Source: Eubacteriales bacterium (GTDB lineage: Bacteria > Bacillota > Clostridia > Oscillospirales > CAG-382). Taken from it: a DNA stretch of 59,978 nucleotides. Where the stretch lies: assembly GCA_045636665.1 (NCBI GenBank), contig JAZTXY010000014.1, forward strand, positions 1 to 59,978, read 5' to 3'. This document shows, piece after piece, positions 43,801-49,800 of this stretch. Positions within the stretch are counted from its first letter, which is position 1. Each line of letters opens with the position of its first letter. A program made the position numbers.

Positions 43801-46800
43801 ACCTGTCCCAGAGGCGAAGAATACGCAAAGAACGAAATCGTTTCCCCGATGCGCACCATTACCGGCTCGGTCGGTATTTCGGGCGGTATTCACTCCCGTT
43901 TGGCGGTACGCACCAACCGCGCAGTCCCCAAAAGCAAGATGTTTGAAATTATGGCTGTGCTTCACGCTTGTAAGGTTCAATCCCCCATCAAGCGCGGCGA
44001 CGTTATTATTGAAAACGTTTGCGGTACGGGCGCGAACGTTATCGCATCGCGCGATATGTAAATTATAAAAAGCGAGAACTTCGGTTTTCGCTTTTTTGTT
44101 TTGTAAAATTCTGTTGATATGTGGCGAATTGTGTGGTATAATTTATTCTGTATAATAATATGTAGTATTTTGGAATAATATTTTGTGACAAAATGCGTAT
44201 GTATACGTCTTTTGTAACGGGGTGTATAGAAATGTCAAACAGAACAATTTCGACAAGAACGAAAAAAGAAATAATGATTGCAATATTGCTCACCGCGTGC
44301 TTATTGCTTGGCTTCGTCGTGATGCTCGTCGTCGAGGATAACGTCGGCACGCCGATTTTTTATGACGGCGAAATGAAAAACATAAACGTTGTTATTAACG
44401 AAATATGCTCGACAAACAAATCGATAATCGCAACCGATAACGGCGAATATCCCGATTATATCGAGCTTTACAATAAAGGCGAAACCTTTAATCTTGCCGA
44501 TTTCGGCTTGGCAAACGATACGCAAAACAGCAAGGCTTACAGCTTTGGGGATTACATTTTTGAATCGGGCAGTTATCTTATCGTTTATCTTGACGGTTCA
44601 AACGTGCCCTTCCGCCTTAATTCAAACGGCGGTGAATACGTTGCGCTCGTTTCGTGGGACGGTACGGTTATCGACAGCACGACAACGGTCAAAACACCGG
44701 GCGACAACGTAATGCTTCGTACCAACGAGGGCTTTGAGGTTTCCGACCTTGCATCGCCCGGTTATCCCAACACCGAGGAGGGTGTCCGTTTGTTCCGCGC
44801 AGGCGTTATGGACGGAAGTATGTCCTTGGCGATAAACGAAATCTTTACCGCAAACGATTCGGTATTGCCCGATTTCGAGGGTGATTATTGCGATATTATC
44901 GAAATCAAAAACATTTCCTCGGCAATCGTTTCCACAAAGGGATATTATATTTCCGACACGCAAACCGACAGAATGCGTTGTGCATTGCCCGAAAAGGAGC
45001 TTGCCCCCGGCGAAATAATGCTCGTTTTTGCATCGGGCAAGGAAAAAATTACCGAAAGCGGCGAATTTCACGCCGATTTCAAGATTTCCGTCGATGAAGA
45101 AATTTTCATTTCACACGGCTCGAAATATACAAAGCAGCCTGCAACGAAATGCGAAAGCAATAAATCGATTTCTCGCGTTAACGGCGAAAACGGAATCGAA
45201 TATACCGAAATGTACGCAACACCCGGATATGAAAACAACGAAAACGGACGTGAAGCGCTTGATAATTCGCGCATCAATTCCGAATATCCGTTGGTAATCA
45301 GCGAGCTTTTGCTCTCGCAGGACGGCGTACCTTACGGCGGAAAGCTTCGTGACGTTATCGAAATTTGCAATATTTCCTCGCAAACGGTTTCGACAAGCGG
45401 ATGGTTTGTGAGCGATTCGCAAGACGACCCTTATAAATACGACCTGCCCGACCGCGACCTTGCGCCGAATGAATGTATGCTTATTTACGCAGAAAACGGC
45501 AGTGGCGAAAACGTTTGCGGCTTTGCGCTTTCCTCGGGCGAGGCGGTTTATTTGACAGGCCCCGACTTTAAGCGAAGCGAATACGTTTCCTGCGCGGCGG
45601 CAGGCAGAGGATTTTCGCGCAGCTATACCGTTGAAAACGGCGAAGCGGTTTACGTTGATGCCGAAATAAGCATCGGCTTTGCAAACGGCGAAAACGGTAT
45701 TAAGGCTTATGCAACGGCGGTTCGACCTGCCGATATCGAAATCAGCGAGGTCGTATCCTCCAACACGAAATTCCTTGCAGGACCTTATAAGACCTATCAC
45801 GATTTTGTCGAGCTTTATAACCGCACCGACAAAGAAATCGACCTTACGGGCTATTACCTTTCCGACGATACCGAGCAGGTAAGAAAGGGCAGTCTTGACG
45901 GCGTAAAGATTCCTGCAAACGGTTACGTTTGCATTATCCTCTCGACCGACGGAATCAACACACCCAAGGGTCATCACGTTGTCAGCTTCGGCATCAACGC
46001 ATCGGGCGAAACGCTCGTGCTTGCAAAGGGCGATACGGTGTTGGACGTTGCGGTCATCCCCTCGCTCGGTCAAAACACTTCGTTTGGCAGAGCAAACGGC
46101 GAAGACGGATTTTCGATCCTTGCATCACCCACACCCAACGATATAAATACCTCACGCGCTACCGAAACCACCTCGACTCCCTCGTCTTCCCTTCCGCAGG
46201 GCGTTTATTCCGAAGGAATCACGGTTGAGCTTCAAGGCGACGGCGCTATTTATTACACGCTCGACTGCTCCGAGCCGACTGCCGATTCGGTCAGATACAC
46301 CTCGCCGATAAAAATCAATTCGACGACGGTTATCCGTTGCATCGCTATTGAAGACGGCAAAAAGCCGAGCAAATTCAGCAACTTTACCTTTATCGTCAAC
46401 GAAAAGGACACGCTTGAAGCGGTTTCGATAGTTACCACACCGGAAAATCTTTGGGACTATTACAGCGGAATTTACGAAACAGGCCCGAAGGCAAGCTCGG
46501 TTTTCCCTTACGAGGGCGCAAACTATTACAACCGTTGGGAGCGCGAAGCGACCGTTTCCTTTTTCGATAAAAACGGAAGCGGATTTGACGAATACTGCGG
46601 CATTCGCATTTTCGGCGGTCTTTCACGCGCGTTGCCCAAAAAATCCTTTGCGCTTTTCTTCCGTCAGGCATACGGAAACGGCGAGCTTGATTATCAGCTT
46701 TTCGAGGATGAGGAGCTTTCGCAATACGAAGGCTTTGTTTTGCGAAACGGCGGTCAGGATTTTAAATACTCGACAATGAAGGACGCGATGGTCACCTCGA

Positions 46801-49800
46801 TGGCGCACGATCTTCTCGGCATCGACGTTCAAAACTGCCGTCCCGTTGTTTTATACCTCAACGGCGAATATTGGGGACTTTATTTCATCCGTGAAAAGCT
46901 TAACGAGCATTACGTTGCAGGTCATTACAACGTATCGGCAAGCGAAGCAACCGTTACCGTTGCAAACGGTAAAACAAGCCCCGAATATACCGAGCTTGTC
47001 AACTTTGCGCACTCTCACGACCTTAGAAATCAAGAGCATTACGACTATATGAAGTCGCAGGTGGATATCGAAAACTATATCGATTATATAGTCGCCGAAA
47101 TGATAATTTGCAACACCGACAACGGCAACATCCGATTTTTCACCTATGAGGGAGGAAAATGGCGTTGGATAATGTACGACGTCGACCAATCCTTCCGTAC
47201 CGCCTCGTATAACACCGTTTCGGAGCATTTGAACCCCGCAGGCACGGGCAGTGCGAATATGTTTTCGACAAGACTTATCAACGCTCTGCTTAAAAACCCC
47301 GAATTCAAAGAAAAATTCCTTCGTGAAACGGCATATCAGTTAAATAACGTATGGACCGTTGAAAACGTCAATGCCTACGTCGATACCTTCCGCGATATGA
47401 TTATCAACGATATCGGCAAGGATTGTATCCGTTGGGAAAGAAAATACGAAACCTGGGAAACCTCGGTTGACAATATGCGCTCCTTTATAGCCGCGCGTGA
47501 AAAATACGTCGTTACGCATATTCAGTCGTATTTCAATCTTTCCGATGATTATATGCTCGAACTCGGTTTTGAAATATAACGGGGAGGAAGATAAGAATGG
47601 CTGAACGCAGAGAAGAAAAATATCTTATCAACTACTCGGAATATTCGATTATTTCAAACCGCATAAAGGCGCTTTTACAGCCCGATAAAAACGGCAAGGA
47701 CGGAAAATATTCGATATGCTCGATGTATTTCGACGATGCCTTTGACACGGCGCTTGCCGAAAAGGAAGACGGCAATGCGGTTCACGTTAAGTTCCGTATC
47801 CGCACCTATGACGGAAACGGCGATTTTATCCGTCTTGAACGAAAGACCAAGCGCGGCATCGTTACCGAAAAGCATTCGGCAAGGATAACAAAGGAAGAGC
47901 TTGAAAAAATTCTTTCGGGCGCACCGATTGATGAAGGAAGCGATTGCTTCGGGCTTGTTGCGGAAATGCGCGCAAAGGCATTTAAGCCTGCGGTTTCGGT
48001 CAGATACGACCGCGAGGCATATTATATGCCGTCACTCGGAGTGCGAGTTACCTTTGATATCAACGTCGATTCGCTTCCGCCCGATACCGACACGCTTTTC
48101 GGAAACACAAAACGCGCCTTACCCGCAGTTGACCGCGGACAGATTATTATGGAAATTAAATATTCCGAACGCTGTCCTTCGCTTATCCGCAAGGCGTGTG
48201 CGACAAACAGCGCACAGCTTTCGGTTTCAAAATACGCACTTTGCAGAAATGCACCGATGATATAACATTTAAAGGAGAAACAAAATGAGTATTTTAGACG
48301 CAATAAAAAAGAGTGTTTTGGAGGGCTTTTCTTCCGAAATAACCATTGCCGACATTATTATTTCGCTTATCGTAGCGTTTCTTTCCGGCCTTTTCATTCT
48401 GCTTATCTACCGCCTCACCCTTCGCGGCGTTTCGAGAAACAGAACGTTTGAGGTTACCCTTCTTCTCGTTACCCCCATTTCGGCAATGATAGTTCTTACC
48501 ATTACCTCAAACCTCGCGCTCTCGCTCGGTATGGTCGGTGCTCTTTCGATAATCCGCTTCCGTACCGCAATCAAGGATGCAAGCGACACAGCATTTATGT
48601 TCTGGTCGGTTGCGGCAGGTATCACCGCAGGCGCGCATTTCTACAAGATTACGATAATCGGCTGTCTTTTCATCGGTCTTGCGGCTTTCGCAGTAATCAA
48701 GCTCACCTCGACCGGCTCGCGACCCTATCTTCTCGTTGTACGCGCAAACAGCGACAAGGCGATCGATTACACAGCGCGTCTTCTTAACGAGAACAACATA
48801 AAGAACCGTCTTTCGTCGCTTGTTGACAACGGCGATTACAGCGAGGTCATTTATGAAATCGCACTTCGCGGCAACCACCAAAAGCTTACGGGTGCGCTCA
48901 AAAACCTACCCGACGTTATAAGCGTTTCGCTTGTTGACTGCAGAAATTAAGAAAGAAATTAAGAAAGAGGAGCCGTTTGGCTCCTCTTTATCATTATTTT
49001 TCATCTGTCAGTCCGACAAGATAATCGATGCTGGTTTTATAAAGCTTGGCGAGCTTTATCATAACGTCCAAAGGAACAGCTCGCTCTCCGCGCTCATATT
49101 TCGAATACAAAGATTGATCGCACATAAGATATTTTGCAACAAAGCTTTGCGTATAATCATTGTCCTCTCGCATATCGCGTATACGTAATTTCATCATAAT
49201 CACCTACTTCAATATACATCAAAACCTTTTTCCCTATTGACAAATAGGACTATTTGTCCTATATTAGGTCTTGGGAGGTGCATTTTAATGCCCGATTATA
49301 AGAAAATGTATTTTGCGCTTTTTAATGAATTAACTGACGCTATCGAAAGACTTAAAGAGGCGCAAAAGCGTTGCGAGGAGCTTTATATTTTTTATGAAGG
49401 CGACGATGAGGACGAAAAAGCAGATTAACGGCAAGTCAATCTGCTTGTTTCTTTTTCGTTTCCAAAACACGCATTAAAACGATTGCGCCCAACGGGAAAA
49501 CGAAAAGCCCCAAAAGTCCCAACAATTTAAGCCCGATATACATCGATGCAAGTGCGGCAATCGGCGGAAGTCCGATAAATTTACCGACGATTTTCGGCTC
49601 GACGACCTGACGGATGATGGTTATCAAAACGTAGGTTACCAAAATTCCTGCGCCCAAGCCGTAATTACCCATAATCAAAAGAACGATTCCCCACGGGATA
49701 AGCACCGTACCCGTACCGAGCACGGGCAGAAAATCGACAAGCGCGATGACGAGCGCAAGGATAAAGGAATAATCGACTCCCAAAACGACAAACGCAAGCA

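Follow-up and report, generated by a model that had tools for sequence, protein, structure and literature searches.

A compact three-gene operon that encodes a CotH-family kinase, a VTC-domain protein and a DUF4956 protein was identified in the window (the whole stretch of 59,978 nt that was analyzed). It is proposed, with a probability of roughly 0.55, that this operon specifies a membrane-associated polyphosphate module which is tied to the cell surface.

The three ORFs were found exactly in the interval 44193..48950 given by the initial annotation. They follow each other in the order CotH kinase, VTC-domain protein and DUF4956 protein with gaps of 17 and 19 nt (Table 1), with a glycerol-3-phosphate oxidase operon upstream and ytvI downstream. 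Judging from the short gaps, the ribosome-binding sites and the flanking promoter-like and terminator-like sites, the set is a self-contained operon. The host is described as an uncultured gut Clostridium.

Table 1. Features of the CotH-VTC-DUF4956 operon and its borders, in window positions.
Feature	Position	Strand	Description
Terminator-like hairpin	44067..44096	+	13-bp stem and T run; ends the upstream glpO / Pyr_redox_2 / DUF1667 genes
Sigma-70-like promoter	44114..44142	+	TTGATA, 17 nt, TATAAT, TG upstream; 11/12 matches; ~50-90 nt 5' of CotH start; a consensus match only, the regional total of such matches being not above that of shuffles
CotH-family kinase gene	44193..47579	+	ORF of 1128 aa
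Single N-terminal membrane helix (CotH protein)	44262..44351	+	residues ~24-53, preceded by a basic stretch
LTD (Lamin-tail) domain, top-scoring of four	45726..46040	+	residues 512-616, Pfam
CHB_HEX_C_1 / Fn3_assoc module	46194..46373	+	residues 668-727, Pfam
CotH kinase domain	46602..47510	+	residues 804-1106; D976 (NTDNGN), D996 (YDVD)
VTC-domain protein gene	47597..48265	+	222 aa, soluble; GGAGG 9 nt 5' of ATG
DUF4956 protein gene	48285..48950	+	221 aa; AGGAG 8 nt 5' of ATG
Terminator-like hairpin	48964..48989	.	11-bp stem, 6 GC; T runs on both strands; 14 nt 3' of DUF4956 stop

The VTC protein was matched by Pfam VTC over residues 4-215 with an E-value of 1.9e-28 (100 bits versus a cut-off of 23); this span had been reported before, with an E-value of 2e-29. 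When a profile of 31 homologues was compared with the PDB, Vtc4 (3g3q, E 2.1e-20), Vtc2 (1.3e-12) and Vtc3 (2e-10) were found, and of the 12 sequences with E<=1, 10 were chains of these three proteins and two were weak matches to YEATS domains (E 3e-4 and 0.012). Used as PDB query without a profile, the sequence on its own did not find Vtc4. With an AlphaFold2 model (pLDDT 91.6), the best 10 Foldseek rows were all VTC-complex chains (top E 1.9e-13, TM-score 0.74), and other tunnel enzymes appeared at E 3e-8 or worse. Yeast Vtc4 is thus the nearest match in both sequence and structure.

According to the accessible part of a preprint, the triphosphate/Mn-binding residues of Vtc4 are K200, R264, R266, K281, R361, K458, S457, Y359 and E426, and their mutation lowers polyphosphate (bioRxiv 10.1101/2023.01.27.525886). 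The residues named there align with K8, R67, R69, K83, R139, K212, S211, Y137 and E186 of the VTC protein, respectively. All nine were invariant in 31/31 homologues, and in 150 further VTC representatives (20-43% identical to the query) each was kept in 138-150. K212, the equivalent of K458, which is lost in the inactive Vtc2 and Vtc3, was kept in 150/150. The basic and acidic residues listed as invariant by the initial annotation were all invariant in 17 close homologues, but E7, K56 and R198 vary among the wider set of 31. Since the bacterial proteins carry an invariant E6 at the position of Vtc4 T198 and lysines K65 and K85 at those of A262 and H283, their active site is not identical to that of Vtc4. 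Moreover, in contrast to the yeast protein (PDB 3g3q, 8i6v, 7ytj), with which it shares the tunnel fold, the bacterial protein has neither an SPX domain nor a fused three-helix membrane domain. Profile, fold and conserved residues agree in placing the 222-aa protein, as proposed before, among tunnel enzymes of the Vtc4-type branch, with the full catalytic set kept, and polyphosphate synthesis by this protein is considered likely. No enzyme assay or polyphosphate measurement for a bacterial VTC-domain protein was found in the literature searched.

The DUF4956 protein was matched by its Pfam family at residues 39-177 (E 1.5e-12). A new AlphaFold2 model (pLDDT 75.7) showed five long helices, in agreement with those obtained from hydropathy and in the earlier model, followed by a beta-alpha-beta-beta-alpha-beta domain at 148-218. 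Its structure matches were again ACT domains (Z 11.2-10) and the C-terminal domains of MgtC proteins (Z 9.8 over 81 aa and 9.4 over 82 aa). The MgtC build described in the initial annotation was therefore reproduced, and hhalign against MgtC (97% probability, E 1.2e-10, 200 columns) adds homology to likeness: by these comparisons DUF4956 is truly, if distantly, homologous to MgtC along its entire length. NCBIfam NF007431 was matched by 21 of 35 DUF4956 proteins, and Pfam MgtC was not reached by the window's protein even at E<=1. Unlike the MgtC / SapB / YhiD proteins, with which it shares the five helices and the C-terminal ACT-like domain, DUF4956 forms a separate Pfam family with its own signature (N76, G85, R91-F92-R93, D101). 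A true MgtC is also present elsewhere in the genome. The membrane partner, of the MgtC superfamily, is unrelated to the Vtc1 of the yeast complex. A DUF202-type subunit, which we take to be the Vtc1-type membrane domain, was not found in the window's genome (80.5% complete).

The ACT-like domain and the invariant R-F-R motif of DUF4956 are predicted to face the cytoplasm. By the positive-inside rule the N-terminus lies outside, whereas one natural fused ORF, in which VTC is followed by DUF4956, would need it inside; either one of the readings is wrong or the fused ORF is an artefact, and this conflict counts against the proposed module. Also against the module, MgtC proteins are described, in the accessible part of a preprint, as regulators of other membrane proteins and not channels (bioRxiv 10.1101/2024.04.20.589940). 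Nor would a monomer with five helices readily form a pore.

For the CotH protein, Pfam identified CotH at 804-1106 (E 7.5e-48), four LTD domains (E 9.3e-36), CHB_HEX_C_1 at 668-727 and Fn3_assoc. Hydropathy gave one hydrophobic segment at ~24-53 with a basic N-terminus before it, and none in the VTC protein; the predicted topology is N-in with the bulk of the protein outside the membrane, both as stated earlier. The real start is probably the ATG at 44232 (M14), because no Shine-Dalgarno sequence precedes 44193 and the alignments with homologues begin at residue 14-24. Compared with the Bacillus spore-coat kinase (PDB 5jd9/5jda; profile match E 5e-16), both catalytic aspartates are kept, D976 and D996 corresponding in the alignment to D224 and D247 in the B. 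cereus protein (the conversion to B. subtilis numbering is deduced from equal spacing). The Bacillus protein of 359 aa differs in that the operon's CotH is membrane-anchored, predicted to be extracytoplasmic and extended by ~800 residues of LTD and CHB_HEX_C modules.

Among 105 full-length VTC matches from 121 genomes of the family, DUF4956 lies directly 3' of VTC on the same strand in 102 (median gap 155 bp), which bears out the near-obligate adjacency claimed before; the same succession was found in 78/79 related loci from other species. In 72 of these 79 loci the order is CotH-VTC-DUF4956, and CotH follows the pair in 2 more. Within the family sample, CotH is located within 5 kb of at least 31/105 pairs and Cthe_2159 within 5 kb of at least 26/105, so that at least 57/105 adjoin a gene whose product is secreted or located at the surface; the two were never seen together at one pair among the matches listed. 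At most 48/105 pairs have neither within 5 kb among the matches listed, an upper bound because 55 CotH and 47 Cthe_2159 matches lie outside those listed and contig edges cut some loci short; this counts against the link to the surface. Two-component systems flank some pairs, and SpoIVA adjoins the pair in one related locus.

Consistent with the initial annotation, neither PPK1 nor PPK2 turned up in the genome that contains the window (80.5% complete), and each was found in 0/17 genus genomes that are 90-99% complete, while VTC was present in 17/17. PPX/GppA was found in 0/31 genus genomes. The description of the pair as the only candidate polyphosphate synthase is correct among known enzyme families, and for a candidate only. 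However, the control genomes B. thetaiotaomicron, C. glutamicum and M. acetivorans, in which all three families of the operon were matched, also carry PPK1 and/or PPK2, so that it would be too simple to regard the pair as a replacement for PPK.

In the favoured explanation, the VTC protein would take the gamma-phosphate of ATP in a Mn-dependent manner and build the polyphosphate chain, as suggested by the conservation of the catalytic site. DUF4956 would work with it, either holding the enzyme at the membrane and regulating it or passing the chain on; a complex of the two is suggested by near-obligate adjacency and co-divergence. From the gene neighbourhood we infer that the output of the pair may serve a process outside the membrane, here via use by the anchored CotH kinase with its lamin-tail and carbohydrate-binding-type modules and in sister loci via the secreted beta-helix protein Cthe_2159 instead.

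A possible, rather doubtful alternative is a cytoplasmic polyphosphate synthase for storage, stress or metal buffering, with DUF4956 only as tether or ACT switch and CotH or Cthe_2159 co-regulated and chemically unconnected. In the accessible part of the preprint on S. intermedius, the polymer is suggested to remain cytoplasmic, given that other parts of the VTC complex are absent (bioRxiv 10.1101/2024.04.20.589940). The missing DUF202 in the window's genome points the same way, as do the two-component systems, the up to 48/105 pairs with no surface-protein neighbour among the matches listed and, as far as the sources available to us describe them, the function of ACT domains as ligand-binding switches and the regulatory roles of MgtC. 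However, with PPX/GppA found in 0/31 and PPK2 in 0/17 genus genomes there is no known route to use a cytoplasmic store. Extracytoplasmic partners have moreover been recruited repeatedly from two unrelated families, never together among the matches listed, and the pair also occurs inside exopolysaccharide loci, which chance hardly explains.

It is considered unlikely that the VTC protein is no polymerase; it would then be a triphosphatase with the tunnel fold, a cyclase acting on nucleotides, or a transferase whose acceptor, for example a sugar or a lipid-linked one, is handled by DUF4956. The fold does serve triphosphatases and cyclases, seen lower in the Foldseek list, the trio is found in glycan-synthesis loci, and E6 resembles ExExK, the metal motif of hydrolytic tunnel enzymes. 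Against this stand the 9/9 kept Vtc4 residues, including the lysine that active Vtc4 has and inactive Vtc2 and Vtc3 do not, and the distance of at least 5 orders of magnitude by which Vtc4 is closer than any other tunnel enzyme in sequence and fold. A role in spore-coat or cortex assembly, with polymer or kinase deposited in the spore, appears very improbable: the organism has sporulation genes (ytvI adjoining the operon and an FtsK/SpoIIIE-family gene in the window), SpoIVA neighbours one related pair and B. subtilis CotH is a spore-coat kinase, but the trio is present in non-sporulating streptococci and bifidobacteria, its families occur in the three control genomes, and the membrane anchor and surface modules of the window's CotH are absent from the Bacillus protein.

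The initial annotation is partly supported: the Vtc4 type, MgtC build, adjacency, predicted CotH topology and the failure to find PPK in the genus stood, and the complex, the export and the use by CotH stay proposals. The idea is also less new than the initial annotation implied. As far as the accessible parts of two sources show, the trio of CotH, 'poly-phosphate polymerase' and DUF4956 has been described as a set of accessory genes that follow pel operons in Gram-positive bacteria (Whitfield et al. 2020, PMC7112168; bioRxiv 10.1101/2024.04.20.589940), with the same families, order and readings, both systems being known from bioinformatics alone. The preprint already reads S. intermedius SIR_1594-1592 as a CotH that is secreted and has its catalytic residues, a protein with a tunnel like that of Vtc4, and a protein of membrane helices and ACT that CDD assigns to MgtC, and its authors state in that part that they could not find any trio outside pel operons (bioRxiv 10.1101/2024.04.20.589940). 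In contrast, the window contains no pel genes, and PelG was not found in the genome (80.5% complete). The stand-alone, pel-free operon, its occurrence in a lineage where neither PPK nor PPX was found, and Cthe_2159 as the alternative partner are new. SIR_1594 has, in the description available, an N-terminal kinase domain and FN3, whereas the 1128-aa CotH of the window is anchored at its N-terminus, carries four LTDs and has its kinase domain in the C-terminal part. A VTC-type 'polyphosphate polymerase' with a CotH kinase is also found in C. perfringens NELoc-2 and in loci on plasmids from Pseudobutyrivibrio xylanivorans and Planococcus maritimus, the two plasmids having DUF4956 annotated too; these three loci, with glycosyltransferase, HEAT-repeat and deacetylase genes alongside, are set in polysaccharide-synthesis genes, whereas the operon in the window stands alone.

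Three consecutive ORFs of the plus strand, coding for a CotH protein (g00192, 1128 aa), a VTC protein (g00193, 222 aa) and a DUF4956 protein (g00194, 221 aa), could be identified exactly where the initial annotation had located them, on contig C14 of the draft genome (1.82 Mb, 139 contigs, 80.5% complete). The genes are separated by gaps of 17 nt and 19 nt, and ribosome binding sites were observed for the second and third gene (GGAGG 9 nt 5' of the VTC ATG and AGGAG 8 nt 5' of the DUF4956 ATG). No Shine-Dalgarno sequence was found before the ATG at 44193, and homologues of the CotH protein align from residue 14-24 onward; therefore, its translation probably starts at the ATG at 44232. 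Of the promoter-like and hairpin sites, the placement alone is suggestive, as the total count of such sites in the region was not above that in shuffled sequences. Upstream, glpO, a Pyr_redox_2 oxidoreductase gene and a DUF1667 gene form a three-gene set. A minus-strand ORF at 42422-43828 was rejected as upstream neighbour: it is a shadow frame of the Pyr_redox_2 gene without a Pfam match, and in relatives the identity was 85-99% for the Pyr_redox_2 frame versus 55-90% for the minus-strand frame. Downstream of the operon lies the convergent ytvI gene, and the remaining genes of the window are housekeeping genes. At 30341-35773 (+), the window also encodes a 1810-aa protein in which ~1200 residues without a Pfam match at E<=1e-5 separate an S8 subtilase domain (157-403) from a cadherin-like domain at the C-terminus. 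Close relatives of the organism are uncultured gut or rumen Clostridia labelled Oscillospiraceae, Eubacteriales, Faecousia or Ruminococcus sp. Among the listed matches to sequencing runs there were 12 DNA runs, each sharing 0.05-0.07 of words, and no RNA run, a result that is uninformative as to expression.

Features of the operon and its upstream border (window coordinates)
Feature	Coordinates	Strand	Remark
glpO	41020-42462		upstream of operon
Pyr_redox_2 oxidoreductase	42446-43723	+	upstream of operon
DUF1667	43720-44061		upstream of operon
Hairpin, 13-bp, with T run	44067-44096		closing upstream genes
Promoter-like site	44114-44142		11/12 consensus match
CotH ORF	44193-47579	+	Pfam
VTC protein ORF	47597-48265	+	Pfam
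DUF4956 protein ORF	48285-48950	+	Pfam
Hairpin, 11-bp	48964-48989		after DUF4956 stop

The VTC protein matched the Pfam family VTC (PF09359) over residues 4-215 (E 1.9e-28, 100 bits against a cut-off of 23). When the single sequence was compared with the PDB by phmmer, no solved relative was identified and only chance antibody rows were returned; therefore, a profile was needed. The profile built from 31 homologues matched Vtc4 best (3g3q, E 2.1e-20; also 8i6v, 7ytj and 9umg), followed by Vtc2 (E 1.3e-12) and Vtc3 (about 2e-10), and besides Vtc chains only two weak, unrelated rows were obtained. An AlphaFold2 model was predicted with a pLDDT of 91.6 and a pTM of 0.86, and the top 10 rows of a Foldseek search with this model were all chains of VTC complexes (best E 1.9e-13, TM-score 0.74). 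As modelled, the protein has the tunnel fold, with Vtc4 as its nearest relative among solved structures.

According to the available text of a cryo-EM preprint on the yeast VTC complex (bioRxiv 10.1101/2023.01.27.525886), triphosphate is bound in Vtc4 by K200, R264, R266, K281, R361, K458, S457 and Y359 and manganese by E426, and mutation of the eight triphosphate-binding residues lowered cellular polyphosphate. Only K458 among these residues is replaced in Vtc2 (I522) and Vtc3 (L527), which are inactive. In HMMER alignments, K200, R264, R266, K281 and R361 correspond to K8, R67, R69, K83 and R139 of the VTC protein, and K458, S457, Y359 and E426 to K212, S211, Y137 and E186. All nine were invariant in the 31 homologues. 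In a wider sample, comprising the best 150 of 17,257 representative clusters (20-43% identical to the VTC protein), R67, R69, K83, R139, E186 and K212, the last being the counterpart of K458, were kept in 150/150, K8 in 149 (one N-terminal gap), S211 in 148 (T in 2) and Y137 in 138 (C in 10). The bacterial proteins have invariant E6, K65 and K85 where Vtc4 has T198, A262 and H283. The family is large: of 1.84 billion representative clusters, 10,728 matched at E<=1e-10. Most likely, the VTC protein makes polyphosphate from ATP, a predicted activity that would be located at the membrane.

For the DUF4956 protein (Pfam DUF4956 39-177, E 1.5e-12), a build of five membrane helices with an ACT-like domain at the C-terminus had been described, and it was seen again in a new AlphaFold2 model (pLDDT 75.7): a short N-terminal helix, helices 21-45, 53-73, 77-94, 99-116 and 120-142, and a beta-alpha-beta-beta-alpha-beta domain at 148-218. 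A wide structure search, which covers residues 144-221 only, also recovered the matches reported earlier, namely ACT domains, with Z from 11.2 down to about 10, and the C-terminal domains of MgtC, with Z 9.8 over 81 aa for P. aeruginosa and Z 9.4 over 82 aa for M. tuberculosis; a Foldseek search of the PDB gave no row at E<=0.001. Since the ACT-like fold is common, such a match is weak on its own.

The relation to MgtC is more apparent from the sequences. The window's protein had no match to Pfam MgtC (PF02308) at E<=1 and aligned with NCBIfam NF007431 (MgtC/SapB) over 75-215 (model positions 71-213 of 215) with 28.8 bits, below the cut-off of 214. Of its relatives, 21/35 matched NF007431 (best E 1.9e-9) and 11/35 matched Pfam MgtC, and when DUF4956 was compared by hhalign with true MgtC proteins (11 sequences of related genomes), a probability of 97.0% was obtained (E 1.2e-10, 200 columns), the alignment running from the first helix through to the end. 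These sequence matches are stronger than the structural ones, and DUF4956 is therefore placed, on sequence grounds, as a divergent branch of the MgtC superfamily rather than a look-alike; the homology is at superfamily level and the protein stands outside the MgtC family proper. A true MgtC-family gene is present elsewhere in the same genome (G000:C24:6981-7349). Invariant residues of DUF4956 are G85, R91, F92, R93, F106, L149 and Y190, and N76 and D101 are nearly invariant. By the positive-inside rule, the 46-52 loop, the R-F-R motif and the ACT-like domain are predicted to face the cytoplasm and the N-terminus the outside.

The CotH protein matched Pfam CotH at 804-1106 (E 7.5e-48, 164 bits against a cut-off of 23.8) and also carries four lamin-tail domains and a CHB_HEX_C/Fn3_assoc module. 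Since a single hydrophobic helix follows a basic N-terminus, the bulk of the protein is predicted to be outside the cell. A single-sequence phmmer search of the PDB with the CotH domain returned nothing at E<=0.01, and a profile of 15 kinase domains matched B. cereus CotH (5jd9, E 5e-16). D976 and D996, invariant in 15/15, align with D224 and D247 of 5jd9. The B. subtilis CotH variants D228Q and D251A are catalytically dead, as stated in the accessible part of PMC7821199, and we infer from the equal spacing of 23 residues in the B. cereus and B. subtilis proteins that D976 and D996 correspond to these catalytic residues. On another contig (G000:C50:1862-2872), the genome has one more CotH gene, which is shorter, with an open frame of 561 aa.

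To follow the three genes in relatives, we surveyed 121 genomes sampled evenly from the family, that of the window among them. Matches to VTC were found in 88/121 genomes, and DUF4956 and CotH in 85/121 each; all three were found in each of the 17 genomes of the genus. The near-obligate pairing of VTC and DUF4956 held up well: for 102/105 full-length VTC matches, DUF4956 was located directly 3' on the same strand, and of the other three, two had a DUF4956 match on another contig and one had an insertion between the genes. Two kinds of loci occur in the genus. The first, to which the window belongs, has a CotH gene of ~1100 aa upstream, and the full trio was present in 20/20 fetched loci, which had been picked for VTC and CotH adjacency. 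The second has a more divergent VTC-DUF4956 pair without the ~1100-aa CotH; among 12 such loci, seven have the pair next to Cthe_2159 (PF14262), a secreted beta-helix carbohydrate-binding family, three next to a two-component system and one next to a divergent CotH. Among the fetched loci L121-L132 are examples (L121:1985-5766, L123:3739-5709, L127:7741-9372, L131:4137-5903) in which the divergent pair is directly followed by one or two Cthe_2159 genes, and the pairs in L003, L004, L008 and L021 likewise lie directly 5' of Cthe_2159; pairs of this type are often bordered by a histidine kinase and a response regulator.

Across the family, CotH was found within 5 kb of at least 31 of the 105 pairs and Cthe_2159 within 5 kb of at least 26, counts which are lower bounds because a further 55 CotH and 47 Cthe_2159 matches exist besides those listed. 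Among the matches listed, both partners never occurred near the same pair (0/105), and 48/105 pairs had neither. In other species, 79 loci were obtained with an alignment of 17 closer VTC sequences, as the diverse alignment had too little conserved stretch. The order CotH-VTC-DUF4956 was observed in 72/79, VTC-DUF4956-CotH in two (Wukongibacter baidiensis and a Mariniplasma MAG), VTC-DUF4956 only in four, two of them at contig starts, and an irregular arrangement in one. In two cultured bacteria the trio is plasmid-borne: on a plasmid of Pseudobutyrivibrio xylanivorans it lies amid glycosyltransferase, acyltransferase and pyruvyl-transferase genes, and on one of Planococcus maritimus it lies beside HEAT-repeat and glycosyltransferase genes. 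Longer or fused forms were not found with a single-protein query, and an alignment query found one, so small a number being weak evidence. This fused ORF (P0124, 473 aa), the sole one in 5.8 billion clusters, carries VTC (7-236) ahead of DUF4956 (276-434), as in the gene pair. Its cluster has a single member, on two contigs, and the fusion, which may be an artefact, conflicts with the predicted DUF4956 topology, in which the N-terminus faces outward.

In agreement with the initial annotation, PPK1 and PPK2 were not found in the window's genome, nor in any of the 17 genus genomes searched, and PPX/GppA was found neither in the window's genome nor in 31 genus genomes (11 of high quality). All searches were positive in the expected control genomes. 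In the family, PPK1 was present in 4/121 and PPK2 in 3/121 genomes. A role of VTC as simple PPK substitute was rejected: PPK was likewise not found in most of the family genomes that have no VTC, and three controls with VTC, DUF4956 and CotH (B. thetaiotaomicron, C. glutamicum and M. acetivorans) also hold PPK1 and/or PPK2, so that the module is not simply a PPK replacement.

The gene set itself has been described. In streptococci and clostridia, cotH, a 'poly-phosphate polymerase', DUF4956 and DUF4832 are accessory genes contiguous with pelDEADAFG, with a cyclase/phosphodiesterase in place of DUF4832 in bifidobacteria (Whitfield et al. 2020, PMC7112168, as far as its text was available). In the accessible sections of a preprint on S. 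intermedius (bioRxiv 10.1101/2024.04.20.589940), SIR_1593 is described as Vtc4-like with the required catalytic residues present, the third gene is assigned four membrane segments and an ACT domain, with MgtC as CDD match, and the combination is reported not to be found beyond pel operons. A C. perfringens paper, in its available part, lists two 'polyphosphate polymerase' genes and a CotH in NELoc-2. In contrast to the trio of the preprint, the operon studied here has no pel genes within the window, and a search of the genome (80.5% complete) gave no PelG. Going by these portions of the sources, the locus adds a new member, independent of pel, to a gene set that is already in print. The literature searched, which covers only a minority of subscription journals, yielded no experimental work on any bacterial VTC-domain protein, and a link to VTC was not seen in the Cthe_2159 literature among the matches listed.

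In contrast to yeast Vtc4, whose catalytic part is fused to an SPX sensor and to a membrane domain of three helices, the VTC protein consists of the VTC domain alone, and no hydrophobic segment was detected in it by hydropathy. DUF202 (PF02656), which we take to be the domain of Vtc1, was not found in the window's genome (80.5% complete). Thus, the architecture of the eukaryotic complex, with SPX, membrane domain and Vtc1-type subunits, is not shared. Complex prediction for the VTC protein (31-row alignment) and the DUF4956 protein (35 rows), run without controls, gave a score of 0.00 in both runs, a value that carries no weight on binding in either direction. For a putative physical complex of the polymerase with a membrane channel, the adjacency of the genes (102/105) and the one fused ORF are indirect evidence.

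Combining these results, we favour, with a probability of roughly 0.55, a reading in which the VTC protein would polymerise polyphosphate from ATP at the membrane, the MgtC-like DUF4956 protein would work together with it, and the output of the pair would serve a surface process. The proposal of the initial annotation, in which the locus was described correctly and the pair was taken as bacterial counterpart of the yeast complex, is partly supported. In its bolder form, which we consider rather unlikely, the polymer would be made at the inner face of the membrane, exported, and would serve surface proteins either as a donor of phosphoryl groups or as a polyanion that is bound or covalently attached. 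These proteins would be CotH kinases or, in a different class of loci, Cthe_2159 beta-helix proteins. Two features would agree with export and use by CotH, namely that extracytoplasmic partners from two families alternate beside the pair and that the pair is linked to exopolysaccharide loci, and a polymer could act as donor because ATP is scarce outside the cell.

A cytoplasmic polyphosphate synthase with a regulatory partner is a possible, if doubtful, explanation of the same genes. For S. intermedius, the available preprint text proposes that the polymer remains cytoplasmic (bioRxiv 10.1101/2024.04.20.589940); set beside this are the predicted outside location of the CotH protein and the secreted nature of the Cthe_2159 family. 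It is improbable that the VTC protein is a tunnel enzyme other than a polymerase: PH1819, YgiF, an archaeal TTM and class IV cyclases were also retrieved by Foldseek, from E 3e-8 and with TM-scores of 0.43-0.56, these ranking behind the VTC chains, and the full set of Vtc4 ligands is kept in the close homologues. A role specific to sporulation, for which the likeness of the kinase domain to Bacillus CotH could speak, is very improbable; the gene set is also part of streptococcal Pel loci.

Bacterial polyphosphate is attributed to PPK1 and PPK2. If a yeast-type polymerase works in bacteria, it would be a third route, present in a large family, and would explain how gut Clostridia without PPK1, PPK2 and PPX could make polyphosphate. 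The fixed pairing with VTC offers a concrete handle on the molecular activity of the MgtC superfamily, and the alternating CotH and Cthe_2159 partners bear on how surface kinases are fuelled. Were the polymer exported and used at the surface, a widespread, unrecognised phosphorylation or polyphosphate coating of the wall, of matrix polysaccharides such as Pel or of surface proteins would follow. Because the same genes are described, in the available parts of the sources, for streptococcal Pel loci and for the necrotic-enteritis locus of C. perfringens, the question of the polymer bears on biofilm formation and colonisation, and the chemistry of the locus is readily testable.

Some further neighbours were observed in the family. 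In L006, L009 and L020, loci of one genus, an FtsZ gene directly adjoins the VTC-DUF4956 pair. Tubulin/FtsZ GTPases are also listed with VTC genes in NELoc-2 (Lepp et al., as cited in the accessible part of PMC11677781), and the shared occurrence may be a coincidence. In another genus (L010, L012, L014, L015 and L018), a secreted-looking protein of 436-481 aa without a Pfam match is encoded directly 5' of the pair and may represent a third type of partner outside the cytoplasm. Upstream of the VTC-DUF4956-CotH set in L017, a GGDEF diguanylate cyclase gene (L017:2317-3630, minus strand) recalls the cyclase/phosphodiesterase beside the trio in bifidobacteria, as described in the available text of PMC7112168.
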